Positions 28,401 through 45,505 of a stretch of 60,575 bases of DNA are shown here, piece after piece. Below the pieces are notes generated by a model. The model was given only the letters and a program-made list of their open reading frames with translations, made no database searches and was not told the DNA's origin. The position numbers and the translations under genes are program-made. Each line of letters starts with the position of its first letter. Positions within the stretch are counted from its first letter, which is position 1. The stretch is from an uncultured Bacteroidales bacterium (GTDB lineage Bacteria > Bacillota_I > Bacilli_A > ML615J-28 > CAG-698): NCBI GenBank assembly GCA_964407835.1, contig CAYOXB010000004.1:1-60575 (forward strand), given 5' to 3'.

Positions 28401-30102
28401 TGCTATTAGAGTTGACTATTCTACAGTTCATGGAGTATTTAATATTAAAAATAACCATTTTGAAGATATTAAATATAATGGCTTCTACGTAAGATCATAT
28501 GTAGTTGCTCATAGTCCAATTGTATTCAATATTGAAGGCAATGTATTCAAAAACATTGGTGAAGCAGGAAAAACTGAAACTCCTGCATCTACAAGAATTG
28601 GTGCAATTGCAACTGCTGGATATGGCGAAACAAATAGCGCAACTTTCAATATTCGTTTCAACCATTTTGAAGATAACGTTAATTATATTACCCTAAGAGC
28701 TAATGTAACTGATGTTGATACATGGGCAACAAAACCTCATGAATGGAAAGCAATTATTGAATATAACTCATTCATCGATGCTGATGAAGTAACAAATTAC
28801 TTCATTAATGCTGCTAATGCAGCAGATACTGCGCAAACAAATGTTAATAATGTTGTGTTTGATAATAACTTCTATGGTAAAGATGCTGATACAAAAGCTG
28901 ATATTCTACCAAGTCAATTTGATATTTATGATGAAGAAAATAGTAACTTAACTGTTTATGAAACATTAGAAGAATTACTAGAAGCTATTGCAACTTATAA
29001 TGAATTTATTAAACCTATCTATGTAGACCCTGCTCTTGCAGACTTAGAAGATGACGATCCAGTAATGTATAATGGGATTGAACTCAAATATGGAGTTAGT
29101 GCATTTAGTAATCTTGCAGATGCTGTTGATGCAGCAGAAGCAGGTAAAATAATTATCCTTGCTCCTGGTTTACATCAAGCAGGTAATGTTAATGTAGTAG
29201 TAGACAATCTAACACTTGTAGGACCTAATAAGGGTATTAATCCAATTACAGGAACTAGAGCAGAAGAAGCTATTATCGAAGCTAAAGTTATTATCGGTGA
29301 AGGTGTTAAAAACTTCGAAGTTAATGGTATAACACTTAACTATAAAAACACTGGTAGCTATTTTATTGCTCATGCAAATGGTAAAATGGACGGATTTAAA
29401 TTCCTTTATAATATAATCGAAGGTTCACAAGGTGGTGGCGATGCAGCTCCACTTCGTTTCTTCCAAGGTAGTGCAGCTGTTGGTAATAAAAACTTTAATA
29501 TAAGTTTCAATATTATTAGAAATGTTGGTGCTGATAGAGGAATTAGAATTGCTCATATTGAAAACTTCCATGTGGAAGGAAACTTATTTGAAAAACTTAC
29601 AACTGATGCTATTCGTCTTAATGATAATAGTGGAAGTGTAACTGGTGAGTTTTATTTGATCAATAATACGTTTAAAGATATTGGTCAATTTGCAGTTTTC
29701 CAAGGTGCAACTAGTATAGAGAAAATGGTATTTACAGGAAATACATTTGATAATATGGGTACACATTACTCTGGTGGTGCTTTAAGTATTAGAGCACTTA
29801 CTCTACCTGCTGCTGGAACTGAAATTTTAATTGCTAATAATACATTTAAAGATAGTCAATCAGCAATTAGAATTGATCATGCTCTAGCTGCACAAGCTGC
29901 TAATATTGTTATTGAGAATAATGAATTCTTTGCTACATATGCATACATATATAATAATACTTTAGCTGGTGAAGTATCTACATTGTTCAAACTTAATAAT
30001 AAAGTTTACGATGCAGGTGGCGAATTATTAGACCTTGAAGAGCTTACAACTGGAGCTTCTCCAATGATTAAAAATGCATTTGTTGGAGATGCGTTTGAAT
30101 AA
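25483..30102 (+). CDS. Surface lipoprotein with four Big_2 Ig-like domains and three right-handed beta-helix (pectin lyase-like) modules
   Basis: Lipobox LVSC; four W(T/S)SS...ATVD..G.V....G...IT repeats; three modules each opening with AF...(D)A....I....G.(Y/H); repeated I.I.NN.F rungs. Confidence 0.8.
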   Translation: MQKNNKIIFLILMFFLFVGLVSCTKEVSLKFAKEEIEIVVGEEKELDLTVVGEDVILEWTSSDFSIATVDQDGKVVGVKVGEVTITVTAKDTDAKATITVIVKAKPEVVPTGVIVMNIPDEVKVGDVVTLSVTVLPEGASQEVVWSSSNPAVATVDATGKVSFLAVGEVVITAASKAKLTVKRDVPFSVQIPDPTEVVISSKTGLYEVLLSATLQMEATVHPDLADQTVIWSVNDSNIATITEAGLLQPKQVGTVIVSATSAVDDEVFGTKTITILRPPGTSLELTAPYKVLQIEEEMQLVTRILPELADQEVIFASTNSDVLTVDSTGKVVAVAVGTATITATAKTNPNVGKAVLVTVVEKVAEVDHDNYYVSAGVKNLSRYEKFVHDSEDYYVGINAFADFDEIDSLEEGTTIFVGEGIYIGSLVINKDNVSIISENELKDPNKVVFEKQAVLQGKFTLAADVKNVRFAGLSFTNTGRIENVSTLDGFTFENNFIYATQPAGKVWAPGRDYNLTGFITLWKMQQKVDNIVIENNKFENVPEVVIMIGNTDGVSIKNNTFTNFGQDAIRMDGGHNYNETTITGNRFVNDEVSGTNAIYFRSLGVNATADNRHMIEIADNYFENIGTDQDYSGAISAQGYQEWGVTINIHHNEFVSCYDYIWLRNNATAANHAANSWVANINFNVFLGLPENYYFRSKNGTTDTEETNPTLANLDANFFGDLDGNQIDLTDEDILALFIDVASLNYSFTSIEAMTALFVDLAWEGKADQEEILYDGMLLSYGKTAFSKIMDALEAVEPRGIIIVLPGEYDEEVEITKPVNMMTLNSNFNPVEDDSRFLDLAETSTVITKVWYLNNVSNVTIKGFTFTGEARVRQYGAENSAGLRGFVFENNYAHDTNAPTIAWKQTAYASYGISTKYDTTMPGFLSLAQFASWMYDFKIINNKFSNVLDTNIVLICTSGVTITGNEFIGSDRDAIRVDYSTVHGVFNIKNNHFEDIKYNGFYVRSYVVAHSPIVFNIEGNVFKNIGEAGKTETPASTRIGAIATAGYGETNSATFNIRFNHFEDNVNYITLRANVTDVDTWATKPHEWKAIIEYNSFIDADEVTNYFINAANAADTAQTNVNNVVFDNNFYGKDADTKADILPSQFDIYDEENSNLTVYETLEELLEAIATYNEFIKPIYVDPALADLEDDDPVMYNGIELKYGVSAFSNLADAVDAAEAGKIIILAPGLHQAGNVNVVVDNLTLVGPNKGINPITGTRAEEAIIEAKVIIGEGVKNFEVNGITLNYKNTGSYFIAHANGKMDGFKFLYNIIEGSQGGGDAAPLRFFQGSAAVGNKNFNISFNIIRNVGADRGIRIAHIENFHVEGNLFEKLTTDAIRLNDNSGSVTGEFYLINNTFKDIGQFAVFQGATSIEKMVFTGNTFDNMGTHYSGGALSIRALTLPAAGTEILIANNTFKDSQSAIRIDHALAAQAANIVIENNEFFATYAYIYNNTLAGEVSTLFKLNNKVYDAGGELLDLEELTTGASPMIKNAFVGDAFE

Positions 30103-30168: not shown

Positions 30169-31086
30169 CATACCTTGATAAAGGTTATTTATTTTCATAT
30201 ATTTATCTATTTCATTCATTACTACAAGTTTTTTTAAGCTCCAAAGAGGTTCAATTAGTTCATCTTTTGGAGCGTCTCCTGTAAGCCTGTGAATGATAAT
30301 ATTAGCATTTAAGAGAGTGATTTGCTTTGAAGTTATGGAAACATACTCATCTAAAGTGAGTATTTTAAAGGGTTTAGTTAAGTAAATATTTCCTAGTGGT
30401 GTCTTATTTAAAATAAATAAAGAATGGATTTTAAGACCCTGAATATCTTGTGTATTTAAAAACATTACTGTCTCTAACATCATTTCTGGTGTTTCATTAG
30501 GTAGACCATTTATAATGTGGGTAATAACTTCAAGTTTAGCTTCTCTTAGTTTTTTTACGGCTTGTTTAAAATCAGCTAAAGTATAGCATAAATTTAAATA
30601 TTCCATAGTTTCTGAGTGGATTGTTTGCAGTCCCAGTTCAACCCAAACAGGTATTTTATTATTTAGCTCTTTTAAATATTCAATAATTTGATCATCTAAA
30701 CAATCGGGTCTTGTTCCAATTGAAAGAGCTACTATATTTGGATCTAAGTGAATAGCATAATCAAAAAGAGTTTTAAGCTTTTCTAGGGGAGCGTAAGTAT
30801 TTGTATTAGCTTGGAAGTAAATAATATATTTGCCGTTTTTCCATTTCTTTGCCATTATTTCTTTTTGGGTATTGAATTGTTTTAGTAGATCATCTTTTGG
30901 ATTACCTGCAAACTCACCACTTCCTTTTGCACTACAAAAGATACAACCACCAAAGCCTTTTGAACCATCCCTATTCGGGCATGTAAAGTTACCATTTAAG
31001 GATATTTTAAAAACTTTAGAATTATATTTAGTTTTTAAGTATTGATTTAAGCTATTATATTTATGCTGTTTTGAAAAATAATTCAT
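30154..31086 (-). CDS. TIGR01212-type (YhcC/YtqA-like) radical SAM protein
   Basis: FTCPNRDGSKGFGGCIFC, YFQANTNTY, IGTRPDC, VELGLQT, HIINGLP, IHRLTGD. Confidence 0.88.
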   Translation of the reverse strand: MNYFSKQHKYNSLNQYLKTKYNSKVFKISLNGNFTCPNRDGSKGFGGCIFCSAKGSGEFAGNPKDDLLKQFNTQKEIMAKKWKNGKYIIYFQANTNTYAPLEKLKTLFDYAIHLDPNIVALSIGTRPDCLDDQIIEYLKELNNKIPVWVELGLQTIHSETMEYLNLCYTLADFKQAVKKLREAKLEVITHIINGLPNETPEMMLETVMFLNTQDIQGLKIHSLFILNKTPLGNIYLTKPFKILTLDEYVSITSKQITLLNANIIIHRLTGDAPKDELIEPLWSLKKLVVMNEIDKYMKINNLYQGMKKEL

Positions 31087-31183
31087 TTGAAGTTCCTACA
31101 CTTGTTATTTTATTATTATATATTAGCCTAATTAAGTAGTAATATCAAGTTGTAATGTATTTAATATAAAAAAATTATAAAAA

Positions 31184-31212
31184 TTGCTATTGTTTTAAAA
31201 ATGATGTATAAT
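31184..31212 (+). promoter_or_regulatory. Sigma-70-type promoter of the ncRNA
   Basis: TTGCTA (31184-31189)-17 bp-TATAAT (31207-31212), placing +1 near 31219. Confidence 0.7.
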
Positions 31213-31218
31213 TAAATT

Positions 31219-31387
31219 GCCTGGGGAGTTCGGGTTTTTATATAATTGCGGACCCAACAAATCTGATTTAGGAAGTTGAGGCATATTTAAGAGTGAACGC
31301 TTACTTGTAAGAATCCCAATAATATGCAAAAAGAGACTACCACCCTGTGAAAACGAGGTTTCACATTGTAATATCGGCTTCCTGGGT
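31219..31387 (+). ncRNA. ssrS: Probable 6S RNA
   Basis: GC-richer ORF-free island with its own promoter and terminator. 5' CCTGGGGAGTTCG pairs with 3' CGGCTTCCTGGG; GGACC pairs with GGTTT; there is an unpaired central region; GGaAGTT/GACTaCC and GCATATT/AATATGC form the apical stem. Folded by eye, no covariance model run. Confidence 0.72.
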
Positions 31388-31407
31388 TAAATTAAAAACA
31401 AGAAATT

Positions 31408-31442
31408 AAGACATTCTAGTTATTAACTAGGATGTCTTTTTA
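31408..31442 (+). terminator. Intrinsic terminator of the ncRNA
   Basis: AGACATTCTAGT-tatta-ACTAGGATGTCT followed by a T tract. Confidence 0.8.
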
Positions 31443-31514
31443 TCTAGTGTAAAAGAATAGGTTTAAACTATTTTTATTATTTTTGGTAATATTGTCGCTT
31501 TGGGCACTTTAGAC

Positions 31515-31543
31515 TTGAAAGCGCTTCGCTAATGGTATATAAT
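31515..31543 (+). promoter_or_regulatory. Promoter of the glutamate mutase operon with an overlapping LacI/cre-like site
   Basis: TTGAAA-17 bp-TATAAT; TGAAAGCGCTTC overlaps the -35 and spacer. Confidence 0.6.
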
Positions 31544-31578: not shown

Positions 31579-31992
31579 GTGGATACAATAGTTATTGGTG
31601 TAATCGGAGCTGATGTACACGCAGTAGGAAATAAAATAATTGATTATACTCTAACAAGAGAAGGCTTTAATGTTGTTAATGTTGGGGTATTATCTACTCA
31701 AGAAGACTTTATTAATGCTGCAATAGAAACTAACGCAAAAATGATTCTTGTTTCATCTTTATATGGCCATGGGGAGATTGATTGCCGTGGTATGAGAGAA
31801 AAATGTATTGAGGCTGGACTTGATGATATTCTTTTATATGTTGGTGGTAATATTGTTGTTGGAAAACAAGAGTTTTCTGATGTAGAAATGAGATTTAAGA
31901 AAATGGGATTTGATCGTGTTTTCCCTCCAGGAACAACGATTGATTCTGTTATTGAAATAATAAAACAGGATTTAGAAAACCTTAGTGACTAA
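31579..31992 (+). CDS. glmS: Glutamate (methylaspartate) mutase S subunit, B12-binding
   Basis: [11 protein letters not shown] (DxHxxG), [17 protein letters not shown]; GTG start after SD ggagga. Also called mamA/mutS; not the glucosamine synthase. Confidence 0.93.
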
Positions 31993-33382
31993 ATCTTTAA
32001 AGACTAATTATTTATTAGTTGATATAGGTTCAACCTATACGAAACTAACAGCAGTTAATTTAGAAGAAGAAGATATTATTGCTACTAGTCAAGCACATAC
32101 AACTATTTTGGATGATGTTCATTTAGGTTATCAAGAAGCATTGGATTTACTTTTAAAAGATTTACCAAAAGATGTAGTGTTTGAAAAGATTTTTGCTTGT
32201 TCATCTGCTGCAGGTGGCTTAAAGATGGCAGCAATAGGACTTGTTGAAGAATTAACTGTTGAAGCAGCTAAAAGAGTTTGCCTTAATTCTGGTGGGAAGG
32301 TCGATTTAATTTTTTCTCACTACCTAACAAAATCAGATATAGAAAAAATTAAAGATGGTAAAATTGATATTATTCTTTTGGCTGGTGGAACTGATGGTGG
32401 AAATAGCGAAGTAGTTATTCATAATTTAGGAATGCTTGCAAGAGCAGGAGTAAAAATTCCTATTATTTATGCTGGTAATAAATCAGCACAAGATGAAGTT
32501 TTAGAAATATTTGAAGAATATAAACTAAATGGTCATATATGTGCCAATGTAATGCCGAAGCTCAATGAACTTAATATAGATCCTGCTAAGGAAGTTATTA
32601 AGAAAATATTTTTAGAAAATATTATTGAAGCTAAAGGTATTAAAGTTTTCTCAAAGAAAATTAATGGTGATTTACTACCTACGCCACAAGTAGTATTAAA
32701 AGCTATTGAGCTTTTAAGTGTTGGTTATTTAGGTGAAGTTGGATTTGGAGATAGTGTTTTAATTGATATAGGTGGTGCAACTACTGATATTTATTCGATT
32801 TCTAAAGGACTTCCAAAAACACCAAATACAATAGTTCAAGGCTTAGAGGAACCTTTTGCGAAGAGGACAGTAGAAGGAGACCTTGGAATGCGCTATTCTG
32901 CTGGTGGAATAGTTGATAGTCTAAATAAAGAAAGCTTAGAAAAATATAAACTAGCTGGAATTGATTTAGTAAGAGCAGCGGAGTTTCGTTTAAATAATGT
33001 TGAATTTATTCCAAACTCTAGTGAAGAGAAAAAGATAGATACTGTACTTGCAAAGATAAGTGCAGATACAGCCTTTTCTAGACATGTAGGAACTACTGAG
33101 GCTATGTATACTCCGGTTGGAGTTATATATGCTCAAAGAGGTAAGGACCTAAGTGAGACAAAAACAATAATTGGTACTGGTGGAGTTATTATTAAAAATG
33201 ACGAACCAGTTGAAATATTAAAAGAGATTCAAACTAATCTAAATAAACCATTAGAACTTAGACCAAAGGATGCTAACTTTTATTTAGATAGTGATTATAT
33301 TCTTTCCGCAATGGGACTTTTAAGTTTTGAAGAACCAATGCTCGCTTTAAAAATAATGAAAAAGAGAATTAAGAGAATTTAG
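31985..33382 (+). CDS. glmL: Glutamate mutase reactivating factor (GlmL/MutL-type, actin-like ATPase)
   Basis: [43 protein letters not shown]. Confidence 0.9.
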
Positions 33383-33384: not shown

Positions 33385-34842
33385 ATGGAACTAAGAAATA
33401 AAAAATGGACTGAAGAACAATTTTTAAAAGAAAGAGAAAAGGTCTTAGCTACTTGGCCAACTGGCCAGTCACCACTGCTTAATTTAGATATAGCTGTTGA
33501 AAGACTTAAAAAGATTCCAGCAGAGAAAAACTTTGCTATTCAGCTCAACCTTGCAAAAGAAGATGGAAGAACACAAATTCAACCACGAGCAGGTGTTGCT
33601 GTTTTAGATGATCATATAGAATTACTCCAGCATTTACAAAATGCGGGGGCTGATTTCCTTCCTTCCACAATCGACTCCTATACGCGTCAAAACCGTTATC
33701 AAGAAGCAGAAAATGGAATAAATGAAAGTATTAAGTTTAAGAGAAGTTTACTTAATGGTTTTCCAGCTGTTAACTACGGAGTTGAAGGTTGTGGAAAAGT
33801 CCTAGATGCTGTAAGTGTACCGCTACAAGCAAGACATGGAACACCGGACTCTAGACTTTTAGCGGAAATTATTCACGCTGCTGGTTGGACTTCTAATGAA
33901 GGTGGAGCACTTAGTTATAATGTTCCCTATGCAAAAGCTGTGTCTATTGAAGATACAATTAAGTATTGGCAGTATTGTGATCGTTTAGTTGGCTATTATG
34001 AGGAAAGAGGGGTTAAAATAAACCGTGAACCTTTTGGCCCGCTAACTGGAACTTTAGTTCCTCCAGTAATTTCTAATACTGTTGCAATTATTGAAACACT
34101 ACTTGCTGCAGAGCAAGGAGTTAAAAATATAACTGTTGGTTATGGGCAGGGCGGAAACTTAATTCAAGATGTTGCTGCTGTTAATGCACTAAGAGACCAA
34201 ACAGAAGAGTACTTAGAAAAATACGGATACAAGGATATGGAAATATCAACTGTATTCCACCAATGGATGGGTGGTTTTCCTGCTGATGAAGCGAGTGCTC
34301 TAGGTTTAATATCAATGGCTTCAACTGTTGCTGCTTTAAGTAAGGCTACTAAAATGATTACAAAGACTCCATATGAGTCTATTGGTGTGCCTACAAAAGA
34401 AGCAAATGCAATGGGAATAAAAGCATCTAAATTTGTTGTAACACTTCTTCGTGATCAAAAGTATGAAGAAAGTGCTAAGTATAAAGAAGAATATAACCAA
34501 ATCAAAAAAGAGGTTAATTCTATAATGGATCATATCTTTATTTTGGGTGAAGGTGATTTGGCTGTTGGGACAGTTAAAGCTTTTGACCAAGGAATTCTAG
34601 ATGTGCCTTTTGCACCTAGTAGATATAATGCGGGTAAGGTTCTTCCTGCTAGAGATATTGATGGTTGTATAAGAATCTTAGAATTTGGAAATATTGGCTT
34701 TAGCGAAGAAATAAAAGAATTTCATCGTAAGAAAATATTAGAACGTGCAAAATCAGAAGGTAGAGAAGTTTCATTCCAATTAACTGTTGATGATGTATAT
34801 GCTGTTAGTAATGGTAAATTAATTGGAAATTCAAATAAATAA
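33385..34842 (+). CDS. glmE: Glutamate (methylaspartate) mutase E subunit
   Basis: [60 protein letters not shown]. Confidence 0.95.
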
Positions 34843-34863
34843 TTAAAGAAAGAGAATTAAAAA

Positions 34864-36111
34864 ATGAAAATTGTAGATGTTATTTTATCAAAATCCTATA
34901 CTGGATTTTACTTTGATGATCAAAAAGCGATTAAAGCTGGAGCTAGCCAAGACGGTTTAGTGTATTTAGGAAAACCAATGACTGAAGGTTTTACTCAAAT
35001 TAGAATGCCTGGTGAGGCTATTTCTATTCAACTTGTTTTAGAAGATGGGTTAGTTGCTAAAGGAGACTGTGCAGCTGTACAATATAGTGGTGCAGGTGGA
35101 AGAGATCCTTTATTTTTAGCTGATGACTTCATTCCATTTATTGAAAAGAATTTAGTTCCGCTTTTAATTGGAGAAGATGTAAAAGATTTTAGAAAGTTAG
35201 CTGAAAAATACGATAATTTAGTTGTTGATGGGAAAAAACTTCATACAGCTATTCGCTATGGTGTTACTCAAGCATTACTTAGTGCAACAAGTTTAGTTAA
35301 AAGAAAAACAATGGCTGAAGTTGTACGAGAAGAATATAATATAAAAGATGACAAGTATGAAGCAGTTGATGTATTTACCCAAAGCGGTGATGATCGTTAT
35401 TTGAATGCTGATAAAATGATTTTAAAAGAAGTAGATGTACTTCCTCATGCTTTAATTAATCATGTGGAAACAAAATTAGGTCAACAAGGTGAAATTTTAG
35501 TTGCCTATGTAGAAAAATTAAATAAAAGAGTTAGAAGCTTAAGAAGTAATCCTAACTATATGCCAATTTTCCATATCGATGTTTATGGAACTGTTGGAAT
35601 AATCTTTGATAATAATGTTAGAAAAATTGTTGATTACTTTAAAATTTTAGAAGAAGCTGCAAAACCATTTAAACTAAGAATTGAAGGTCCAGTTGATGAT
35701 GGTACAAAAGAAGGTACAATGGCTCTTTTAAGAGATATTACTGCACTTTTAGATAAAGAAGGAGTTAATGTTGAAGTTGTTGCTGATGAATGGTGTAACA
35801 ATTTAGAAGACATTAAATACTTTGCAGATAACAGAGCTGGTCATATGCTCCAAATCAAAACTCCTGACTTAGGTGGAGTTAATAATACTATTGAAGCAAT
35901 TATGTACTGTAATGAAAAGAAAATTGGTGCTTATTGCGGTGGCACTTGTAATGAAACAAATATTTCAACTGAAATATCTGTTAACCTGGCTATAGGTGCA
36001 AAAGCTAAGCAAATACTAGGTAAACCAGGTATGGGTGTTGATGAAGCGATTATGCTTGTAAGAAACGAGATGAACCGCGTCTTAGCTATAGCAAACAAAA
36101 GAGGAAAGTAA
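34864..36111 (+). CDS. mal: Methylaspartate ammonia-lyase (beta-methylaspartase)
   Basis: GFYFDDQKAI, GDCAAVQYSGAGGRDPLF, HTAIRYG, LPHALIN, HIDVYG, VADEWCN, QIKTPDLG, GGTCNET. Confidence 0.95.
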   Translation: MKIVDVILSKSYTGFYFDDQKAIKAGASQDGLVYLGKPMTEGFTQIRMPGEAISIQLVLEDGLVAKGDCAAVQYSGAGGRDPLFLADDFIPFIEKNLVPLLIGEDVKDFRKLAEKYDNLVVDGKKLHTAIRYGVTQALLSATSLVKRKTMAEVVREEYNIKDDKYEAVDVFTQSGDDRYLNADKMILKEVDVLPHALINHVETKLGQQGEILVAYVEKLNKRVRSLRSNPNYMPIFHIDVYGTVGIIFDNNVRKIVDYFKILEEAAKPFKLRIEGPVDDGTKEGTMALLRDITALLDKEGVNVEVVADEWCNNLEDIKYFADNRAGHMLQIKTPDLGGVNNTIEAIMYCNEKKIGAYCGGTCNETNISTEISVNLAIGAKAKQILGKPGMGVDEAIMLVRNEMNRVLAIANKRGK

Positions 36112-36112
36112 A

Positions 36113-36370
36113 ATGAAGATTGGCGTTTGTGGCAGCTTAGAATCAAATGATTGCTTAATTACTGTAGAAGAAAGCGATAAACTAGAAATTATAATTGAAA
36201 GTATTGTTTATGATTTCTTTGCTGAACAAATTGAAGATGTAATAAAAAACACCTTAATAGAGCAAGGAATTGCTCAAATTAAGGTTTTTTGTAATGATAA
36301 GGGTGCACTTGATTATACGATTAAATCAAGGCTAGAAGTAGCAATTAAAAGAATGAGGGAGCAAGTATGA
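36113..36370 (+). CDS. citD: Citrate-lyase-type acyl carrier protein (gamma subunit)
   Basis: CGSLESND (prosthetic-group Ser) and DKGALDYTIKSRL. Confidence 0.9.
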   Translation: MKIGVCGSLESNDCLITVEESDKLEIIIESIVYDFFAEQIEDVIKNTLIEQGIAQIKVFCNDKGALDYTIKSRLEVAIKRMREQV

Positions 36371-37209
36371 GAAGATCACTATTATTCATTCCTGCAAATA
36401 ATCCAGGAATGATGCAAAATGCAAAACTTTTCAATGCCGATAGTATTATTTTTGATCTCGAAGATGCAATTAGTATGAGTGAAAAAGATAGTGCTAGAAG
36501 TATTTTAAAAAACTATTTAAACACTTATGACTTTAACTTTGAAGTTATCGTTAGAGTTAATGATCTTGACTCAGTTTATTTCTTAAAAGATTTAAATGAA
36601 ATAGTTCTTCCTAGTCTTGATACTATAATGCTACCTAAGGCTAGAGCAAGTCACTTTAAAAAATTAGATGAAATACTAACAAAACTAGAAACTGAGAAAA
36701 AATTAAAAAAGAAAATTAAAGTTATTCCGATTGTTGAGCTTGCTATATCAGTTTTAGAAATAGAAGAAATAGCAAAAGCAAAACGAGTTGATGGTATTTT
36801 ACTTGGTGCTGAGGACCTATCTAGTGATATGGAGTTTGAAAGAACTCTAAAAGGTGATGAGATATTTTACCCAAGAACTAGACTTGCTTATGTTGCTAGA
36901 GCATATGGTATAGATGCAATTGACACTCCATTTACTAATGTTAGAGATAATGATGGTTTAGTTAAAGATGCAACATATGCAAAATCTCTTGGTTTACAGG
37001 CAAAAGCTGCAATTCATCCAAATCAAGTTAGATTTATTAATGAAGTATTTTCACCATCTAAAAAACAAATTGAATTTGCTTTAAAAGTTGAACTTGCTTC
37101 TAAAAATAATAAAGGTGCATTTAGTCTTGATGGGCAAATGATCGATAAACCGATAATTGAAAGAAATAAAAAGATTCTTGAAAAAGCAAGAAAGTTTGAT
37201 TTGCTATGA
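36367..37209 (+). CDS. citE: Citrate/citramalate-lyase-type beta subunit (acyl-CoA lyase)
   Basis: RRSLLFIPANNP, FDLEDA, VRVN, LGAEDL, AIDTP, AIHPNQ; ATGA overlap with citD. Confidence 0.9.
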   Translation: MRRSLLFIPANNPGMMQNAKLFNADSIIFDLEDAISMSEKDSARSILKNYLNTYDFNFEVIVRVNDLDSVYFLKDLNEIVLPSLDTIMLPKARASHFKKLDEILTKLETEKKLKKKIKVIPIVELAISVLEIEEIAKAKRVDGILLGAEDLSSDMEFERTLKGDEIFYPRTRLAYVARAYGIDAIDTPFTNVRDNDGLVKDATYAKSLGLQAKAAIHPNQVRFINEVFSPSKKQIEFALKVELASKNNKGAFSLDGQMIDKPIIERNKKILEKARKFDLL

Positions 37210-38699
37210 TGAAATTACCAAAAGGTTTTAAAGGATTTACAACAAGCGAAGCTTATAAGCAAATAGAATATAAAAAAGTTGCTACTATTGAAGCTAGCAA
37301 TAAAGACAATAAGGTTTTAAAAAGTATTAGTGAAGCATTTGATAAGCTAAAAATTGTAGATGGAATGACTTTGTCTTTCCACCATCACTTAAGAAATGGT
37401 GATTTTGTCTTAAACTATTGTTTAGCGGAAATAAAAAAAAGAAATTTAAAAAACATTACTTTAGCACCTAGTTCAATCTTTCCTGTACACGAAGCTTTAA
37501 GTGAACTCATAATTAATAAAAATGTTACAACGATTTATACTAACTATTTAAATGGTAGTGTTGCAAATACAATTAATGATGGTTTTCTAGAAGGTTTACT
37601 TATTATGGATACTCACGGGGGAAGAAGTGTAGCAATCGAGGCTGGAGAAATTGTAATTGATGTAGCTTTTATTGCAACTCCTACAGCTGATAAACTTGGC
37701 AATGGCCACGGCAGAAGTGGTAAAAGCGCATGTGGGTCTTTAGGATATGCTATTCCTGATATGTTATACGCGAAGAGTAAAGTAGTAGTAACTGATAATT
37801 TAGTTGATAGTGTAGAAAACCCTGAAATAAAAGATAAATATATTGATTATGTTGTAGAGATTGAAGCAATTGGAGACCAACAAAGAATAGTTAGCGGTAC
37901 TACGAAAATTACAACTGATCCAATTGGTTTAAGGATTGCAGAAGATACAGCAAAACTAATTAATGAACTTGGCTTAATAAAAAATGGGTTTTCAATGCAA
38001 ACTGGTGCAGGGGGGACGTCCCTTGCAGTTAGCGATTTTATTAAAAAAATAATGAAAGAGCAAAATGTAAAGGCTAAATTTGCAAGTGGTGGTATAACTG
38101 GCTATTTTGTAGATATGCTTGAAGAACATTTAGTTGAAGATTTATATGATGTTCAATGTTTTGATTTAGCTGCTGTTAAAAGTTTAGAAAAAAACAAAAA
38201 TCATCATGCAATTAGTGCTTTTGATTATGCTAATCCCTATCATGATCCAGTTGTAAATAAACTTGATTTAGTTATTTTGGGAGCTACTGAAATTGATTTA
38301 AACTTCAATGTCAATGTAACTACAGGATCAAATGGAATTATTATGGGTGGAAGTGGTGGTCATGCAGATACAGCACATGGTGCTGGAGTAAGTATAATTG
38401 TTAGTCCTTTAATTAAGACAAGAATTCCAATCATTAAAGATAGAGTTACTACAATAACTACACCTGGTGAAGATATTGATGTATTTGTAACTGAATATGG
38501 AATTGCAATTAATCCAAAAAGAAAAGATTTACTAAAAAAGATAAAAAATACAAAACTTAAAATAAAAACTATTGAAGAACTCTATAATGAAGCTCATGAT
38601 ATAACATCAATTCCTAAAAAACTAATAAAAACCGATAAAGTAATTGGTTTAGTTAGGTATAGGGATATGAGCATTATCGATTGTATTTATAAAAAGTAG
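37206..38699 (+). CDS. citF: Citrate/citramalate-lyase-type alpha subunit (CoA/ACP transferase)
   Basis: SFHHHLRNGD, THGGR, CGSLGY, QTGAGG, DVQCFD, GGSGGHADTA. Confidence 0.92.
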   Translation: MMKLPKGFKGFTTSEAYKQIEYKKVATIEASNKDNKVLKSISEAFDKLKIVDGMTLSFHHHLRNGDFVLNYCLAEIKKRNLKNITLAPSSIFPVHEALSELIINKNVTTIYTNYLNGSVANTINDGFLEGLLIMDTHGGRSVAIEAGEIVIDVAFIATPTADKLGNGHGRSGKSACGSLGYAIPDMLYAKSKVVVTDNLVDSVENPEIKDKYIDYVVEIEAIGDQQRIVSGTTKITTDPIGLRIAEDTAKLINELGLIKNGFSMQTGAGGTSLAVSDFIKKIMKEQNVKAKFASGGITGYFVDMLEEHLVEDLYDVQCFDLAAVKSLEKNKNHHAISAFDYANPYHDPVVNKLDLVILGATEIDLNFNVNVTTGSNGIIMGGSGGHADTAHGAGVSIIVSPLIKTRIPIIKDRVTTITTPGEDIDVFVTEYGIAINPKRKDLLKKIKNTKLKIKTIEELYNEAHDITSIPKKLIKTDKVIGLVRYRDMSIIDCIYKK

Positions 38700-38706
38700 G
38701 TAGAAT

Positions 38707-39675
38707 ATGGAATTTAAACTAGCTTTACTAGATTCTGAAAAAGAATTAATAAAAGAATTTTTAAATAAATTTTCACTTAGCTATGATCAAGATATTGATT
38801 ATAGCTTATATGTCGTTATTGACGAGAAAATTATTGGAACAATTTCTGCTAGTTTAAATATAATAAAAGCTTTTGCGGTTGATTTAGATTATCGTGGAAG
38901 TCTTGCAAGTACATTAATAAGTAGAGCAATTAATGAACTTTATAGAAGGGGTTATACGTTTTACCAAGTATATACAACACCTAATAATAAAGCTATGTTT
39001 GAAGCGATGAATTTCTATGAAATTATATCTTCAGAAAATGTAAGTTTACTAGAATCTAAAAATAGAGATATTATGGCTGAGTTAATTAGACTTAAAGATA
39101 AATATAAAGTAAATAGTAGTGATGTTGCTGCAATTGTAATGAATTGTAATCCTTTCACAAACGGTCATTTATATTTAATAACTGAAGCTAGTAAAAAACA
39201 TGAACAAGTTATTGTTTTTTTACTAGAAGAAGAAAAATCGATGTTTAGTTTTGCTTCTAGGTATGAGATGGTTTTAAAAGGTGTAGCTAGTCTAGATAAT
39301 GTTGTAGTAATACCTTCTAGTAATTATTTAATCTCAAGCCTTACTTTTCCAACTTACTTTCTAAAACAAGAAGACGAGAAAACATTTGAAGAAGCTAAAC
39401 TTGATGCTTTAATTTTTGAAAAATACTTTATTCCGATATTCAATATTAAAAAAAGATATCTTGGCAGTGAAGAAGATATCGTTACTAGTAAATATAATAA
39501 AGTTTTAAAAGAATATTTTGGTGATTTTATTGAAATAATTCCAAGAATTAAAAATAATGATAAATATATAAGTGCATCAATTGTAAGAAAGTATTTAGAA
39601 AACAAGGAATTTGAAAAGATTAAAGAAATAGTTCCTCTTACAACATATAGTTTTTTGAAGAGTAAATATGAATAA
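38707..39675 (+). CDS. citC: [Citrate lyase] ligase (acetate:SH-lyase ligase)
   Basis: N-terminal GNAT-like region; IVMNCNPFTNGHLYL, YLISSLTFPTYFLK, ISASIVR. Confidence 0.9.
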   Translation: MEFKLALLDSEKELIKEFLNKFSLSYDQDIDYSLYVVIDEKIIGTISASLNIIKAFAVDLDYRGSLASTLISRAINELYRRGYTFYQVYTTPNNKAMFEAMNFYEIISSENVSLLESKNRDIMAELIRLKDKYKVNSSDVAAIVMNCNPFTNGHLYLITEASKKHEQVIVFLLEEEKSMFSFASRYEMVLKGVASLDNVVVIPSSNYLISSLTFPTYFLKQEDEKTFEEAKLDALIFEKYFIPIFNIKKRYLGSEEDIVTSKYNKVLKEYFGDFIEIIPRIKNNDKYISASIVRKYLENKEFEKIKEIVPLTTYSFLKSKYE

Positions 39676-40924
39676 AGAAATCTTAATAGCAAGAGAACAA
39701 AGAAGTAAGCATATTCTTGAAGAATCAAGAAGTAATAAAGTTATTGTTATTAAAGCAAATATTGCTGGGGAAAATAAAAACTTATATTATAGTTCATTAA
39801 TTATTAAAACATTTCTAAAAGAAATAAAGAAGAGAATAGAATATAATGAAGTTGAACATTATTCAAGTTTAGATGGTAATTATTATTTAGTTACACTTTC
39901 TGGAAATTTAAAAGAAATTAAAAGAGTTTTAATAGACTTAGAAGACAATCATTTACTTGGAAGACTAGTTGACCTTGATTTATATTATGAAGGTAAGCAA
40001 ATTTCACGTAGAGACCTTGGAAATAGTTTTAGAAAATGTTTAATATGTAGTGATGATGCTATAATTTGTATGAAAACAAATAAACATAGTTTAGCTGAGG
40101 TCTTAAACAAAAGTGAACTCTTAGTTCATAACTATTTAAGTGAAATTATAACTACAAATTTAATTGAAGCTATTACCCTCGAAGCATCATTAGATCCTAA
40201 ATTTGGTCTTGTTACCAAGACCTCAAAAGGGTCACACTCGGATATGGACTTTGATTTACTTATGAAATCAAGAGACATAATAGTTCCTGATTTAGGTAGG
40301 ATGTTCTTTTTTGGAATAAATAATAACTTAGATGAAGCGTTCAAACTTAGCCGCAAACTTGGTATTTCTACAGAAGAAAGAATGTTTATGGTAACAAATG
40401 GTGTTAATACATATAAGGGTTTAATATTTCTACTTGGTATTGTTCTTACAACAATGGGTTATTTATTTAAAAATAAAAAACTAAGTTTATATGAAAGCAT
40501 AAAAGAACTTGGTAGGAATTTAGTAGCTGAACTAGATAGTGATTTAAATACATTTGGTGGTTATGCTTATAAAGAATATGGCTTTTTAGGTATAAGGGGC
40601 GAAGTTGCTAGTGGCCTAGTGAGCTTAAGAGATGTTACTAGAGATCTAAATAGCTTTAGTGATGAAGAATTAACTCTAGCTTTGATTAAGTTAATTGGGG
40701 CAAGTGAAGATACTGTATTACTAAGGCGCTCAGGTAGTTTGGGAAAATATGAGTTTTATAAAAACTTAGTAGTTAACATTAAAGAATATAATCTAGAAAA
40801 AATAGAAGAAGTAACTAGAATTTGTGTTGAAAACAATATTAGTTTTGGCGGAAGTGCAGATTTACTAGCAACTGCTATATTTATTAAACTAATGGAAAAG
40901 GATTTGGTTATAAAATATGGATAA
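39668..40924 (+). CDS. citXG: Fused holo-ACP synthase CitX / triphosphoribosyl-dephospho-CoA synthase CitG
   Basis: N-half: LIAREQR...LEDNHLLGRLVDLD...RKCLIC (CitX). C-half: PKFGLV...GSHSDMD, NTYKGLIF, GIRGE, SFGGSADLL (CitG). Confidence 0.88.
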   Translation: MNKEILIAREQRSKHILEESRSNKVIVIKANIAGENKNLYYSSLIIKTFLKEIKKRIEYNEVEHYSSLDGNYYLVTLSGNLKEIKRVLIDLEDNHLLGRLVDLDLYYEGKQISRRDLGNSFRKCLICSDDAIICMKTNKHSLAEVLNKSELLVHNYLSEIITTNLIEAITLEASLDPKFGLVTKTSKGSHSDMDFDLLMKSRDIIVPDLGRMFFFGINNNLDEAFKLSRKLGISTEERMFMVTNGVNTYKGLIFLLGIVLTTMGYLFKNKKLSLYESIKELGRNLVAELDSDLNTFGGYAYKEYGFLGIRGEVASGLVSLRDVTRDLNSFSDEELTLALIKLIGASEDTVLLRRSGSLGKYEFYKNLVVNIKEYNLEKIEEVTRICVENNISFGGSADLLATAIFIKLMEKDLVIKYG

Positions 40925-41693
40925 AAGACCAATTGGTGTATTTGATTCGGGAATTGGTGGAGTTAATGTTTTAAAAAGTTTAATAGAAGAGTTTCCTCAT
41001 GAAGACTTTATATATGTTGCAGATACTCTAAATGTACCTTATGGAACTAAATCAGCAAATGAAATTAAAAACTTAGTTGATAGAATTACTAAGTATTTAA
41101 TGAGTAATAATGCAAAGGCAATTGTTATTGCTTGTAATACAGCAACTACGCAAGCTGAACATTTATTTAATTTAGATAATTTAGTAGTTCTTGGTGTTAT
41201 TAAGCCAACAGCAGAAGATGCTTTAAAAAATTCAAAAAACATTTGTGTTCTAGCAACTAATGCAACAATTAAAGCAGGTGTATATCAAAATATTTTCCTT
41301 AAAGAAGGTAAAAATGTATTTCCTATTATGGGAAGTGAACTTGTCGATGCAATTGAAGCTGGCGAGATTGACAATGAATTATCCCATACATTAGTATATA
41401 ATCATTTAAAAGATTTAGTGAATGAAAAAATAGATACTATTGTACTGGGGTGTACTCATTTTGCTTTATATGAAAGAGAAGTAAAAAGTGTTTTAAAAGA
41501 TGCAAGAGTTGTTAATTCTGGCAAACCTACCAGTAAAGAATTAAGAAAAGTTTTAAGCAGAAAGAATTTACTTAATAAGAGTAAAGAAAAAGGAAGAGTT
41601 GACTTAAAGACAACTCTAGATAAAGAAAAGTTTGAAAAACAAATAGCAATATTTGATTTAAAATATAATAGTGTAGAAAAAATTAATATTTAA
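40917..41693 (+). CDS. murI: Glutamate racemase (catalytic motifs intact)
   Basis: IGVFDSGIGG, PYG, IACNTAT (Cys73), VLGCTHF; 8-bp overlap with citXG. Confidence 0.93.
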   Translation: MDKRPIGVFDSGIGGVNVLKSLIEEFPHEDFIYVADTLNVPYGTKSANEIKNLVDRITKYLMSNNAKAIVIACNTATTQAEHLFNLDNLVVLGVIKPTAEDALKNSKNICVLATNATIKAGVYQNIFLKEGKNVFPIMGSELVDAIEAGEIDNELSHTLVYNHLKDLVNEKIDTIVLGCTHFALYEREVKSVLKDARVVNSGKPTSKELRKVLSRKNLLNKSKEKGRVDLKTTLDKEKFEKQIAIFDLKYNSVEKINI

Positions 41694-41718
41694 AAAGAGC
41701 AGAAGTCTGCTCTTTTTT
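41692..41718. terminator. Bidirectional intrinsic terminator
   Basis: AAAAAGAGCAG-aagt-CTGCTCTTTTT between murI and the convergent hydratase genes. Confidence 0.85.
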
Positions 41719-42268
41719 ACTTTCTATTTGTATATTTACTTATACCTTCGCTTAATAAGTCATTTCCATGACTATCATAGGTTACAAAAGCTGTGAAATC
41801 TTCAACTTCAAGTTTATGGATTGCCTCAGCTCCAAGTTCAGGATAAGCAACAACTTCAGCTTTTTTGATTGATTTACTTATTAATGCTGCAGCACCGCCA
41901 ATAGCTGATAAATAAAGACCACCGTATTTTTTAAGTAATTCTTTAAATTCATCATCTCTTGGTCCTTTACCGATTGAAACTTTTATACCTTCTTTCATCA
42001 GGGCTTCTGCATATGGGTCCATTCGATAACTAGATGTTGGTCCAGCTGAGCCTATTGCTTGATGAGGTTTTGCGGGTGAAGGCCCTACATAGTAAATAAT
42101 AGTGTTTTGTGTTTCTATAGGTAGTTTTTCACCACTTGCTATTGTTTCAACCATTTTTTTATGGGCCGCATCTCTAGCGGTGTAAATTGTTCCTGTTATT
42201 GAAACTGTATCTCCTGCTTTTAGTTTCTTTATTTGTTCATCTGTAATTGGTGTTGTAAGTTTTATCAT
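41717..42268 (-). CDS. Class I fumarate hydratase / tartrate dehydratase family, beta subunit (candidate mesaconase)
   Basis: GTIYTARDAAH, IYYVGPSP, GPTSSYRM, IGKG, GGAAAL, EAIHKLEVEDF; ATG 42268 preferred (SD aggtga). Confidence 0.88.
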   Translation of the reverse strand: MIKLTTPITDEQIKKLKAGDTVSITGTIYTARDAAHKKMVETIASGEKLPIETQNTIIYYVGPSPAKPHQAIGSAGPTSSYRMDPYAEALMKEGIKVSIGKGPRDDEFKELLKKYGGLYLSAIGGAAALISKSIKKAEVVAYPELGAEAIHKLEVEDFTAFVTYDSHGNDLLSEGISKYTNRK

Positions 42269-42277
42269 AGTTATCAC

Positions 42278-43123
42278 CTAAATTGTAATTTCTTTATGTC
42301 TAGCAGCATGACACTGGATGTTTATTGCAACAGGAAGACTTGCAATATGGCATGGATAGGAGTTAACTTTAACTGCTAGAGCAGTTGTAGTTCCACCAAA
42401 CCCCATTGGTCCTACACCTAGATCATTTATTTCTTTTAGTAATTCTCTTTCAAGCTCGCGGTCTAACGGATTAGCTGCTTCATCATTAATTGGTCTAAAG
42501 ATAGCCTCTTTCGCAATTATAGCTGCTTTTTCTAGATTTCCGCCTATACCAATTCCTACTATTAATGGTGGACATGGTTTACCACCAGCACTAAAAATAG
42601 TATCAAGGACTAGTTTTTTAACTCCTTCTTTGCCATCTGCAGGAATTAGCATCTTCACAAGTGACATGTTTTCACTACCACCACCCTTAGGTGCAACTGA
42701 AATTCTTAGTTTATCACCTTCAGTTATTGATGTGTGAATAATAGCCGGGGTATTATCTTTTGTATTTATTCTTTCAAGCGGATGATTTACAACTGATTTA
42801 CGTAAATATCCTTCTGAGTAAGCTTCTCTAACTCCTTGATTAATTGCATCATAAATATTACCTTCGAAAATAATTTGATTACCAATTTCGATAAAAATAA
42901 CAACAATTCCAGTATCTTGACACATTGGTACGAATTCTCTTCTAGCAATTAAATCATTTTCTTCAATTTGTTTTAAGACTGTTTTACCTATTGAAGACTT
43001 TTCATCCTTAATGGCTTCTCTAATTTTTGTTAGAACATCTTCATCTAAATTATAGTTAGCATCTAATAATAGATCTTTAACTGCTTTTGTTACTTCATTT
43101 AAATTTAACTTTCGCATATTCAT
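42278..43123 (-). CDS. Class I fumarate hydratase / tartrate dehydratase family, alpha (Fe-S) subunit (candidate mesaconase)
   Basis: PMCQDTG, LRKSVV, NTKDNTP, KGGGSEN, KPCPP, GPMGFGG, CHIASLPVAINIQCHAARH. Confidence 0.9.
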   Translation of the reverse strand: MNMRKLNLNEVTKAVKDLLLDANYNLDEDVLTKIREAIKDEKSSIGKTVLKQIEENDLIARREFVPMCQDTGIVVIFIEIGNQIIFEGNIYDAINQGVREAYSEGYLRKSVVNHPLERINTKDNTPAIIHTSITEGDKLRISVAPKGGGSENMSLVKMLIPADGKEGVKKLVLDTIFSAGGKPCPPLIVGIGIGGNLEKAAIIAKEAIFRPINDEAANPLDRELERELLKEINDLGVGPMGFGGTTTALAVKVNSYPCHIASLPVAINIQCHAARHKEITI

Positions 43124-43418: not shown

Positions 43419-44219
43419 ATGATTAAAAAAGCGATTGGGATTTTAGATAGTGGCTTTGGAGGTACTTTCATTTTGGAAGAACTTGCAAAGTACTATAAAA
43501 ATGAAAGATTTATTTATTTAAATGATTTAAAGCATTATCCATTTTATAATCGTCCTGAAGGTGATGCTCTTAATATTATTAAAAGTCATATTGATTTACT
43601 TCTGAAAGAAGATATTAAATTATTAATTGTTTTAAGTGATATTATTGTAGATATTGCTTTTGATTATTTACAAGAATTTAATATTCAAGTAATTAATATT
43701 GTAGATTTGCTTATTAATTATGTAAATAAAAACTATGAAAACAAAAATATTTGTCTTTTTGGGAAAACTGAAGTAATTGAAGCTAATCTATATCAAAAGA
43801 ATTTTAAGTATAATAGGCTTTATAATATTCCAAGTGAAGATTTAGAGTTATTTATCTTACAAAAGCAAACTAAAACATCACAATCTTTTAAAGCTGTTCA
43901 AGTAGCATTTAATCAAGTAAGAAAGAGATCAATTGATTGTATTGTTGCTTCTAGTCCTTATTTAATTGAGCTTAATACTGAATTAAAAGAACATTTGGAG
44001 TTTAATGAAATAACAAATTTAAAAGATATCATTATAGAAGATATTAACGAAAGAAGATATTTCCTTAATCCTAAGGGTAGGGGAAGTATTAATATTTTAA
44101 GTAATTTAGAAAAAAAAGAGTTTAGTAAACTCATTAAGTTTAAAAAACTTAAATATGATTATATAGATATTGAATATGACCAAAGGAAAAAAAGAGCAAA
44201 ACTTAATAAAGGTTTATAG
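43419..44219 (+). CDS. Glutamate racemase-like protein lacking both catalytic cysteines
   Basis: IGILDSGFGG and YP retained; ACNT replaced by LSDI and GCTH by SSPY; ORF is full length. Confidence 0.8.
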   Translation: MIKKAIGILDSGFGGTFILEELAKYYKNERFIYLNDLKHYPFYNRPEGDALNIIKSHIDLLLKEDIKLLIVLSDIIVDIAFDYLQEFNIQVINIVDLLINYVNKNYENKNICLFGKTEVIEANLYQKNFKYNRLYNIPSEDLELFILQKQTKTSQSFKAVQVAFNQVRKRSIDCIVASSPYLIELNTELKEHLEFNEITNLKDIIIEDINERRYFLNPKGRGSINILSNLEKKEFSKLIKFKKLKYDYIDIEYDQRKKRAKLNKGL

Positions 44220-44262: not shown

Positions 44263-44862
44263 TTATTTATAAATGATGTAATTCCAATCAGGATTAGCAT
44301 AATCTCTAATATTGGAATTTTCAAAAAATGGAAAGTGCTCTTCAGAAATTGGTTCGATTTCGCGCCATTCGCTCCATGGGTTACCACTATGGGTAAGTGG
44401 GCTATTCACAAACCAGTTACTAGTGGTATAGGCACTATTTGCGATGAAATAACGACCATTTGCAGTTACTACAGAATTAACTCTATAGTTTTTGTTTGCT
44501 TGCCACTCAAGTTCAATAGAAACAAATGCCCAAAGTGGGGGATTGTTTGAATCTGGTAGGCCGTGATAAGCTGGATTATATTCTGGGGATGTAGAAATAT
44601 ATAAATCATCTTCGAATTTAAATATTTGTCCTTCAGGAACAACTTGATTAATATTTTCTTCTTCAACCCATATATCCAAATCATAGTCGTCATAGATTGG
44701 AGGTGTAGTTTCTTCTTGATAATTCCAATCACCAATTGTAATTGATTTAGGCGGTAGAGATGAATTATTTAAGCTATCCGTATCCCAAAAAGCATAAGTT
44801 ACTCCAGATAAGCAAATTATGAATGTTATAATTGTAAATAGATATAATGCAAATCTTTTCAT
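44263..44862 (-). CDS. Secreted protein with SipW-cognate-like signal peptide and CBM5/12-like segment
   Basis: ...SGVTYAFWD...ITIGDW at the N-terminus; EWQANKNYRVNSVVTANGRYFIA resembles the W..Y..G..V...G..Y chitin-binding module. Confidence 0.55.
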   Translation of the reverse strand: MKRFALYLFTIITFIICLSGVTYAFWDTDSLNNSSLPPKSITIGDWNYQEETTPPIYDDYDLDIWVEEENINQVVPEGQIFKFEDDLYISTSPEYNPAYHGLPDSNNPPLWAFVSIELEWQANKNYRVNSVVTANGRYFIANSAYTTSNWFVNSPLTHSGNPWSEWREIEPISEEHFPFFENSNIRDYANPDWNYIIYK

Positions 44863-44963: not shown

Positions 44964-45368
44964 TTACTTCTTTGCAGCATTTCCGTTAAATGCATTGACC
45001 ATCTCAGTTGGGTTTAAACCAATTGGGATTAAAAGACAATTGCCTCTAACTAATTCGCTTTTTTGTAGGTCTTTTACTAATCCTTTTAATGTTGAAGATT
45101 CTTCTAATTGTTTATTTAATTCTTTCGTAGATTGGAATTCTAAAACAACAGCAACGTTAAGTCCTTTTGTGAATACATGTGGTGTAACTTTGACATCATC
45201 TTCTTCAAATTCAGCAAGTAAAGGTTTAACAAGATCGTTTACTTTTTCGCTGTATTTATAATCAGCTTTTTCAAAATCTGATTTTACAGAATTAAAACTA
45301 CTACAACCAGCAAGAAGAACTAAACTAAATACTAAAGCTATAACAGCTAAAAATCTAAATTTCTTCAT
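44964..45368 (-). CDS. Small lipoprotein of unknown function
   Basis: MKKFRFLAVIALVFSLVLLAGC lipobox; SD ggagg before ATG 45368. Confidence 0.75.
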   Translation of the reverse strand: MKKFRFLAVIALVFSLVLLAGCSSFNSVKSDFEKADYKYSEKVNDLVKPLLAEFEEDDVKVTPHVFTKGLNVAVVLEFQSTKELNKQLEESSTLKGLVKDLQKSELVRGNCLLIPIGLNPTEMVNAFNGNAAKK

Positions 45369-45505
45369 TTTTATTCCTCCTTTATACAATTCATTATATA
45401 CCTTAATAGCAAGTATTGCAATGGTGTTTTACTATTAAAATTGATTCTTACTTGTAATTATTGTTTTATATAGTATAATAATATTAATATAATGAGGAAT
45501 GAATA

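Follow-up and report, generated by a model that had tools for sequence, protein, structure and literature searches.

Five citrate-lyase-like genes (citD, citE, citF, citC and a fused citXG; 36113-40924) lie on the plus strand of a 60,575-nucleotide stretch of DNA from an uncultured bacterium (contig CAYOXB010000004.1; the whole stretch of 60.6 kb is called the window hereafter). They very probably encode an acyl carrier protein (ACP)-dependent (S)-citramalate lyase of the EC 4.1.3.22 type together with its maturation enzymes, with citramalate as the physiological substrate. We favour this assignment, which is made by analogy with characterised enzymes, because the cit genes sit in a glutamate-fermentation operon that misses only the cleavage of citramalate. 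An initial annotation of this DNA, made from the sequence alone, had also proposed a citramalate rather than a citrate lyase, and a number of results support it: the genes are in one operon with glutamate mutase and methylaspartase, a mesaconase-type fumarase is adjacent, the synteny is found in three phyla, and there is no other candidate in the cluster. The novelty implied by that annotation does not stand, since Kronen and Berg published the same assignment for clostridial clusters in 2015 (PMC4682846), which makes the copy in the window an ordinary one. The locus adds to a known and biochemically unverified gene set, and the reading is supported but already published.

The cit genes in their operon

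The argument starts from what can be observed directly: which genes are present and how they form an operon, a gene order shared among species, catalytic and attachment residues that are kept, and signs of transcription in situ. The genes citD-citE-citF-citC-citXG are part of a single predicted ten-gene operon, glmS-glmL-glmE-mal-citDEF-citC-citXG-murI, whose members share the same strand and are separated by -8 to +21 bp in the map of open reading frames (ORFs). The sequence confirms the earlier statement that citD begins 1 bp past the mal stop: the stop codon TAA (36109-36111) is followed by a single base A at 36112 and by the citD ATG at 36113. The subsequent junctions are -4 bp (citD/citE), -4 bp (citE/citF), +7 bp (citF/citC) and -8 bp (citC/citXG).

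The gene set is complete, including the activation enzymes, as had been claimed, and each member has its Pfam match. The first gene, citD (36113-36370), encodes an acyl carrier (gamma) subunit of 85 amino acids (aa) (PF06857, 81 bits; TIGR01608, 75.6 for a cut-off of 63.5). It is followed by citE (36367-37209), encoding a 280-aa beta subunit that we predict to be a citramalyl-S-ACP lyase (PF03328, 164 bits), and that fails the citrate-lyase equivalog TIGR01588 with 243 against a cut-off of 443.4. The alpha subunit gene citF (37206-38699) has a product of 497 aa, a predicted acetyl-S-ACP:citramalate ACP-transferase, with strong matches to PF04223 (522.7 bits), to TIGR01584 (554.1 versus 501.45) and to the PDB structures 2HJ0 (E=2e-130) and 1XR4 (E=7e-122). 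Next comes citC (38707-39675), for a 322-aa ligase predicted to acetylate the thiol of holo-ACP (PF08218, 199 bits; TIGR00124, 236.1, just below the cut-off of 262.1). The last of the five, citXG (39668-40924), encodes a 418-aa fusion of CitX, the holo-ACP synthase (PF03802, residues 3-155), with CitG, of the triphosphoribosyl-dephospho-CoA synthase family (PF01874, residues 165-406). The CitX domain is above its NCBIfam equivalog cut-off (108.4 versus 105.25) and the CitG domain below its own (162.1 versus 272.3), while the Pfam families of CitC, CitX and CitG are each above cut-off.

The four genes upstream, also on the plus strand, have high-scoring NCBIfam assignments. They are glmS, for the B12-binding subunit S of methylaspartate (glutamate) mutase (31579-31992; NF002612, 220.3 bits for a cut-off of 110), glmL, for the accessory or reactivating protein of the mutase (31985-33382; NF040745, 577.8 for 475), glmE, for mutase subunit E (33385-34842; TIGR01503, 748.3 for 390.1), and mal, for methylaspartate ammonia-lyase (34864-36111; TIGR01502, 575.2 for 286.15). 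Convergent on the operon is a mesaconase-type class I Fe-S fumarase pair (41717-43123, minus strand), made of a putative mesaconase beta subunit, MesB (41717-42277; NF005310, 250.9 for 238), and a putative alpha subunit, MesA (42278-43123; NF004885, 406.5 for 276), both of the class I Fe-S hydro-lyase type.

These proteins could be ordered into one pathway, in which the substrate and each chemical step of the lyase are proposals, the steps being modelled on citrate lyase and on the enzyme purified from Clostridium tetanomorphum. GlmS and GlmE, with GlmL, would convert L-glutamate into methylaspartate, Mal would convert methylaspartate into mesaconate, and MesAB would convert mesaconate into (S)-citramalate. 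To prepare the lyase, the CitG half of CitXG would make 2'-(5''-triphosphoribosyl)-3'-dephospho-CoA, the CitX half would transfer this prosthetic-group precursor onto Ser11 of CitD, and CitC would acetylate the thiol of the prosthetic group with acetate and ATP. CitF would then swap acetyl for citramalate, with the release of acetate, and CitE would split citramalyl-S-ACP into pyruvate and regenerated acetyl-S-ACP.

The genes expected for the use of citrate were sought across the whole window, by scanning approximately 40 ORFs along it with Pfam or NCBIfam and by tblastn with CitA, CitB, CitS and OadGAB of Klebsiella and with CitM and the 2-hydroxycarboxylate transporter (2HCT) of Enterococcus faecium. 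Neither approach revealed a citrate transporter, CitA/CitB or an oxaloacetate decarboxylase in the 60.6 kb, which extends to the entire window what the initial annotation had said of the cluster. The cluster also contains no alternative candidate for the cleavage of citramalate: all ten genes of the operon fall in families other than those of the CmlA/CmlB pair, and the two unassigned ORFs just 3' of the cluster (44263-44862 and 44964-45389) have no PDB match.

Transcription and flanking features

Three metatranscriptomes yielded contigs that cover the operon, if only at low depth, and that cross the mal-citD junction (X8, 34863-36350, with 0 mismatches; X19, 35713-36239; X20, 35835-36192). 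These RNA data are assembled contigs from libraries in which DNA carry-over is possible, and we take those over the junction as supporting evidence for co-transcription, not as proof. Contig depth drops to 0 at 31000-31450 in X8 and X19. This interval is 5' of the best sigma-70-like promoter match of the region, a candidate TTGAAA-17-TATAAT on the plus strand (31515-31543) that agrees with the consensus at 11/12 positions, is a consensus match only, and lies 36 bp 5' of glmS.

The operon ends with a murI-type glutamate racemase gene (40917-41693, plus strand; TIGR00067, 187.9 for a cut-off of 146.65) whose first 8 bp are shared with the end of citXG. Where murI and mesB converge, a pattern match identifies a hairpin of 11 pairs followed by a T-run (41692-41717, with no strand assigned), which is probably a two-way terminator. 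Past the fumarase genes there is a very weak second racemase-like ORF (43419-44219; TIGR00067, 61 bits versus 146.65), and the racemase at 40917-41693 is apparently intact. Two very large ORFs are found 5' of the cluster, one of 1539 aa without an NCBIfam match (25483-30102) and one of 2469 aa (9727-17136).

Conservation of the gene order across species

The CitF family is small: of 1.84 billion proteins searched, those that match it at E <= 1e-30 form 213 representative clusters. To place the window among its relatives we used a comparative set of one genome per species, built from a search seeded with a 13-sequence CitF alignment and restricted to the best 80 CitF loci (49-64% identity). Loci were called mal-linked when glmSLE/mal occurred within 10 kb of CitF. 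Of the 80 species loci, 50 have glutamate mutase or methylaspartase within this distance. Among the 58 loci with at least 6 kb of upstream sequence, 42 are mal-linked; the remaining loci without this linkage are mostly on contigs too short to judge. The conserved order is glmS-glmL-glmE-mal-(mesA-mesB)-citD-citE-citF-(citC-citX-citG), and the recurrence of the same order in 50/80 of the closest species loci indicates that the arrangement is not due to chance. Mal-linked loci are distributed among Bacillota (31), Mycoplasmatota (14) and Fusobacteriota (4). In loci of the Clostridium type, mesAB is found between mal and citD, i.e. the order of the genes is that of the pathway. The reference citrate-lyase loci (Klebsiella, E. 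faecium, Melissococcus) carry CitS or 2HCT, CitAB, and OadGAB or CitM, plus an equivalog-grade citE. The closest relatives of the window CitE have names of Acholeplasmataceae or Bacilli metagenome-assembled genomes (MAGs), and the stretch itself is found in bioreactor, wastewater and anaerobic-digester metagenomes.

A neighbouring malic-enzyme gene, considered as a marker of citrate context in L050, L058, L064 and L065, turned out to be ambiguous because these four loci lack a citrate transporter and a mal-linked Sporomusa cluster has a malic-enzyme gene as well. One of them, from Clostridium thailandense (L065, 4020-8790), has the malic-enzyme gene, citD, a truncated 188-aa citE-like ORF and citF, followed by a second, divergent citE-like gene that is full-length (296 aa, 33% identity).

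Other unusual arrangements came up among the loci compared. The mal-linked Negativicutes (Sporomusa, Pelosinus, Methylomusa) have a conserved ORF of approximately 300-313 aa without a Pfam match in the gap between mal and citD (L092, 8749-9690; L093, 8690-9595; L097, 8658-9593; L099, 8520-9452), and the clusters with this ORF have citC and lack citX and citG. In Veillonella (L074, 8947-11449; also L077, L078 and L080-L082), citE (321 aa) and citF (515 aa) are adjacent, citD, citC, citX and citG were not detected within 10 kb, neither mal nor citrate genes are nearby, and CitE has a citrate-type pocket motif (ALGAEDY...T). On a plasmid of Rhizobium leguminosarum (L086, 8001-9527), citF stands alone, without citD or citE, and its neighbours encode a CaiB/BaiF CoA-transferase, a regulator of the LysR type and a fumarate hydratase.

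Phylogeny and sequence signatures

The window proteins group with those of mal-linked loci. CitF falls in a clade of 26 rows and CitE in a clade of 24 (both starred in our trees) that contain solely mal-linked or too-short loci, mostly from Acholeplasmataceae and Izemoplasmatales. In the tree of the concatenated CitE and CitF, one branch has 51 of the 52 mal-linked rows on the same side. A single mal-linked clade is not rejected by the approximately unbiased test (p = 0.224), and the context label requires two changes on the tree. In a further tree, built with more care, the mal-linked clade has a support of 100/100, and the classical citrate lyases of Klebsiella, Escherichia coli and Enterococcus are placed outside the clade of the window (support 100/98). 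The initial annotation had proposed to split the CitE/CitF tree by mal-linked versus citrate-linked context; a clean split was not found.

The residues expected of a working enzyme of this family are conserved. The prosthetic group, a 2'-(5''-phosphoribosyl)-3'-dephospho-CoA, is predicted to be attached to CitD at Ser11, in the motif GSLES, and the motif G(S/T)(L/I)ES is aligned in all nine CitD sequences compared, including those of K. pneumoniae and Enterococcus. In CitE, the counterparts of Glu112 and Asp138, which bind Mg in the Mycobacterium tuberculosis enzyme Rv2498c, are Glu124 and Asp150, and across 83 CitE sequences the catalytic Arg63 is conserved in 82, Glu124 in 83 and Asp150 in 82.

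Residues that could tell citramalate from citrate are more difficult to pin down, and no signature separating the two types of subunits held in all loci compared. Leu145 and Pro188 of CitE align with Met133 and Val181 of Rv2498c, two residues that touch the substrate's methyl group when (S)-citramalyl-CoA is bound; Rv2498c does not cleave citryl-CoA (PMC6689899). Position 145 is bulky in 50/52 mal-linked sequences of our first sample, and Ala in 4/4 classical citrate lyases, an association that amounts to about one evolutionary change. As a general discriminator between a methyl and a carboxymethyl group Leu145 failed, being clade-specific. Likewise, failure of TIGR01588 was rejected as a marker of citramalate specificity: the window CitE scores 243 and mal-linked ones 243-347, but CitE proteins of citrate context also fall short of the cut-off of 443.4 (L069, 315; Formivibrio citricus, 305), so that the result is not diagnostic.

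Three further positions track genomic context in both independent contrasts. CitF 241 is Gly in mal-linked loci, the window included, and Gln or Glu in citrate-linked ones, with three mal-linked Acholeplasmataceae as exceptions that have the citrate-type Gln. CitF 431 is Arg in 51/56 mal-linked sequences (46/51 in the main clade and 5/5 in Negativicutes) and Tyr, Trp, His, Val or Ile in 9/9 citrate-linked ones. CitE 252 is Phe or Ala in mal-linked loci, Phe in the window, and Ile or Val in 9/9 citrate-linked ones. With only two contrasts and many columns screened, these positions are leads only. We know of no ligand-bound structure of CitF.

The CitX-CitG fusion

The description of CitX and CitG as one ORF is correct. 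Beyond the two Pfam domains, residues 3-157 of the window protein align with the CitX of E. faecium, which is a separate protein, and residues 168-411 with the CitG of that species. The fusion is not an assembly artefact, as the same 418-aa ORF is found in L089 and L090, two independent Logan assemblies. What does not follow is the implied value of the fusion as a mark of citramalate lyase. Among mal-linked loci CitX and CitG are fused in 19 (probably in 2 more) and separate in nine, including those of Clostridium cadaveris, C. liquoris and Desulfosporosinus; moreover, the fusion is present in L050, L058, L069, L095 and L098, among which are citrate-context loci. A CitXG protein is also encoded in the citrate-lyase cluster of Oenococcus oeni, and citXG is listed alongside other cit genes in Limosilactobacillus fermentum. 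We thus rejected the fusion as a marker, both states being found in mal-linked loci and the fused one also in citrate-lyase loci.

Alternative readings of the substrate

Several observations weigh against a citramalate lyase, and are best considered together. First, a subclade linked to CitAB-type two-component and 2HCT genes is nested inside the mal-linked clade. It comprises Providencia, Salmonella, Megasphaera and a Veillonellaceae MAG (CitE at L094, 10001-10876; L095, 10001-10855; L096, 5202-6077; L069, 8373-9230), and is sister to the mal-linked Negativicutes (Sporomusa, Pelosinus, Methylomusa and L051). Its CitE is named 'CoA ester lyase' by the Prokaryotic Genome Annotation Pipeline (PGAP), and Formivibrio citricus groups with it even though the locus of this species showed no CitAB-type or 2HCT genes. 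This nested position suggests a reversal of substrate, and because of it genomic context, not position in the tree, is what identifies the substrate. Second, position 145 of CitE is occupied by Ala or Ser in the mal-linked Sporomusa, Pelosinus, Methylomusa, L099 and L051. Third, the CitF of the window has Tyr431, as do the citrate-linked enzymes of Providencia, Salmonella and Megasphaera, in a motif that reads VTEYGIA instead of the VTERGIA of 46/51 mal-linked sequences, and shares this Tyr with only one other mal-linked locus, L029. Fourth, the depth of the RNA contigs is low, and RNA libraries can contain DNA. Fifth, we found no biochemical evidence, such as an assay of a cloned CitDEF-type citramalate lyase, in the literature searched, where no paper joins methylaspartate or glutamate mutase with Acholeplasma in a relevant way either.

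One scenario for the evolution of the family, to which we give some but limited credence, is that specificity switched at least twice, first to citramalate instead of citrate in the ancestor of the mal-linked clade and then back to citrate in the nested CitAB/2HCT subclade, with CitF 241, CitF 431 and CitE 252 changing in parallel with context. If these positions are real determinants, they would provide the first sequence rule to tell EC 4.1.3.22 from EC 4.1.3.6, and the mixed state of the window (Gly241 with Tyr431) would mark a relaxed or intermediate specificity.

It is improbable, if less so than the two alternatives discussed below, that the complex takes both (S)-citramalate and citrate, its specificity being loose or easily switched and the operon context revealing the main substrate only. 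Under such a scenario one would understand the citrate-type Tyr431 of the window, the Gln at CitF 241 in three mal-linked Acholeplasmataceae, and the nesting of a citrate-linked subclade whose CitE has approximately 62-65% identity to that of the mal-linked Negativicutes. Dimroth, Buckel and co-workers reportedly combined subunits of citramalate lyase with those of citrate lyase in 1977 and obtained hybrids that were active. Yet the window has no genes for citrate uptake or for handling oxaloacetate, extracts of E. coli with active citrate lyase showed no citramalate lyase activity (PMC4682846), from which it follows that the two specificities are distinct, and citryl-CoA is not cleaved by Rv2498c, in which a bulky residue takes the place of Leu145. 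Together, these three results suggest a real discrimination between substrates.

That the genes encode a genuine citrate (pro-3S)-lyase which merely happens to lie beside glutamate genes is very unlikely. CitF, CitD and the CitX domain do pass the NCBIfam citrate-lyase cut-offs, and automatic pipelines name the orthologues citrate lyase. Against this stand the single base between mal and citD and the RNA contigs that cross it, a synteny kept in 50 species loci and three phyla, the lack of a transporter, regulator or decarboxylase for citrate in the 60.6-kb window, and the score of CitE, which is below the citE cut-off. Furthermore, the surrounding pathway would stop at citramalate if there were no enzyme to cleave it. 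We give even less credit to a lyase that uses another 2-hydroxy dicarboxylate or runs mainly in the synthetic direction, with citramalate cleaved by an enzyme encoded elsewhere: CitE-family proteins are promiscuous and their function is not readable from sequence (PMC6689899), and enterobacteria have a citramalate lyase of another kind, the unrelated two-subunit CmlAB (preprint 10.64898/2026.01.16.699985), but the two downstream ORFs match no solved structure, the full maturation set CitC, CitX and CitG is probably co-transcribed with the pathway genes, and the Clostridium-type order, with mesAB between mal and citD, follows the pathway. A citramalate lyase that completes glutamate fermentation is therefore the reading we retain.

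Consequences for annotation

The prediction that automatic annotation would mislabel such genes proved right. In the orthologous cluster of Peptoclostridium acidaminophilum, PGAP gives citrate-lyase names to four of the five genes and calls CitE 'CoA ester lyase', and JGI names close relatives of CitE 'citrate lyase subunit beta'. We found no experimentally verified gene for EC 4.1.3.22 in the literature searched, and it is for this reason that pipelines spread citrate-lyase names over the last step of the methylaspartate pathway. The consequence is that glutamate-fermenting anaerobes look like citrate users in metabolic reconstructions. The window contributes an expressed copy from an Acholeplasma-like digester bacterium, with all five genes in one operon, which would be convenient for heterologous expression. 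Its value is one of confirmation and of caution, since the tree, the equivalog score and the CitXG fusion are each insufficient alone to call the substrate.

Comparison with known systems

The closest known systems are the clostridial clusters in which Kronen and Berg (PLoS One, PMC4682846, Fig. 4) designated CitDEF and CitCXG as a putative citramalate lyase next to glm and mal genes, in C. tetanomorphum, C. tetani, C. carboxidivorans, Blautia hansenii and others. MurI and MesAB appear in the same figure, and the designation of the putative mesaconase in C. tetani is credited there to Boiangiu et al. 2005. The window shares with these clusters GlmS, MutL/GlmL, GlmE, Mal, CitDEF, CitCXG, MurI and MesAB, as well as the pathway logic, and its CitE and CitF cluster with those of mal-linked loci from Clostridium, Blautia and Fusobacteriaceae. 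It differs in several respects: the host is an uncultured Acholeplasma-like bacterium (Mycoplasmatota or Bacilli) from bioreactors and wastewater, mesAB is convergent and downstream instead of between mal and citD, CitX and CitG are fused, unlike in the nine mal-linked loci that have them separate, and CitF has Tyr431 in place of the usual Arg. With the citramalate lyase purified from C. tetanomorphum (EC 4.1.3.22; Buckel and Bobi 1976, as it is cited in PMC4682846 and PMC8473912) it has in common the ACP-containing architecture of three subunits, which in the window are encoded by adjacent genes with overlapping stop and start codons.

Classical citrate lyase (EC 4.1.3.6), which splits citrate into acetate and oxaloacetate, is that of K. 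pneumoniae, E. coli, Enterococcus and lactic acid bacteria. Its three-subunit architecture, ACP serine motif, three maturation activities and Pfam families are those of the window system. Identity to it is nonetheless only 34-37% for CitE and 43-45% for CitF, the linkage to CitS/2HCT, CitAB, OadGAB and CitM is lacking in the window, and in the pocket of the window CitE the motif reads LLGAEDL...F, where the classical enzymes have A(L/I)GAEDY...T. The (S)-citramalyl-CoA lyases acting on free CoA thioesters, namely Rv2498c (6AQ4), human CLYBL (5VXC) and Yersinia RipC (3QLL), have the fold and Mg ligands of the window CitE (phmmer E-values of 1e-26 to 1e-32), and a bulky hydrophobic residue at the methyl-contact position (Met133 in Rv2498c, Val in CLYBL, Ile in RipC and Leu145 in the window). 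They work without ACP, a CitF partner or CitC/X/G, whereas the window CitE is part of a CitD-CitF gene set. Finally, CmlAB of Raoultella planticola and enterobacterial methylaspartate operons (10.64898/2026.01.16.699985), whose two genes are translationally coupled, has the same role, the conversion of citramalate into pyruvate and acetate at the end of the route. Its proteins are unrelated to those of the window, where CitDEF would take that place in the cluster.

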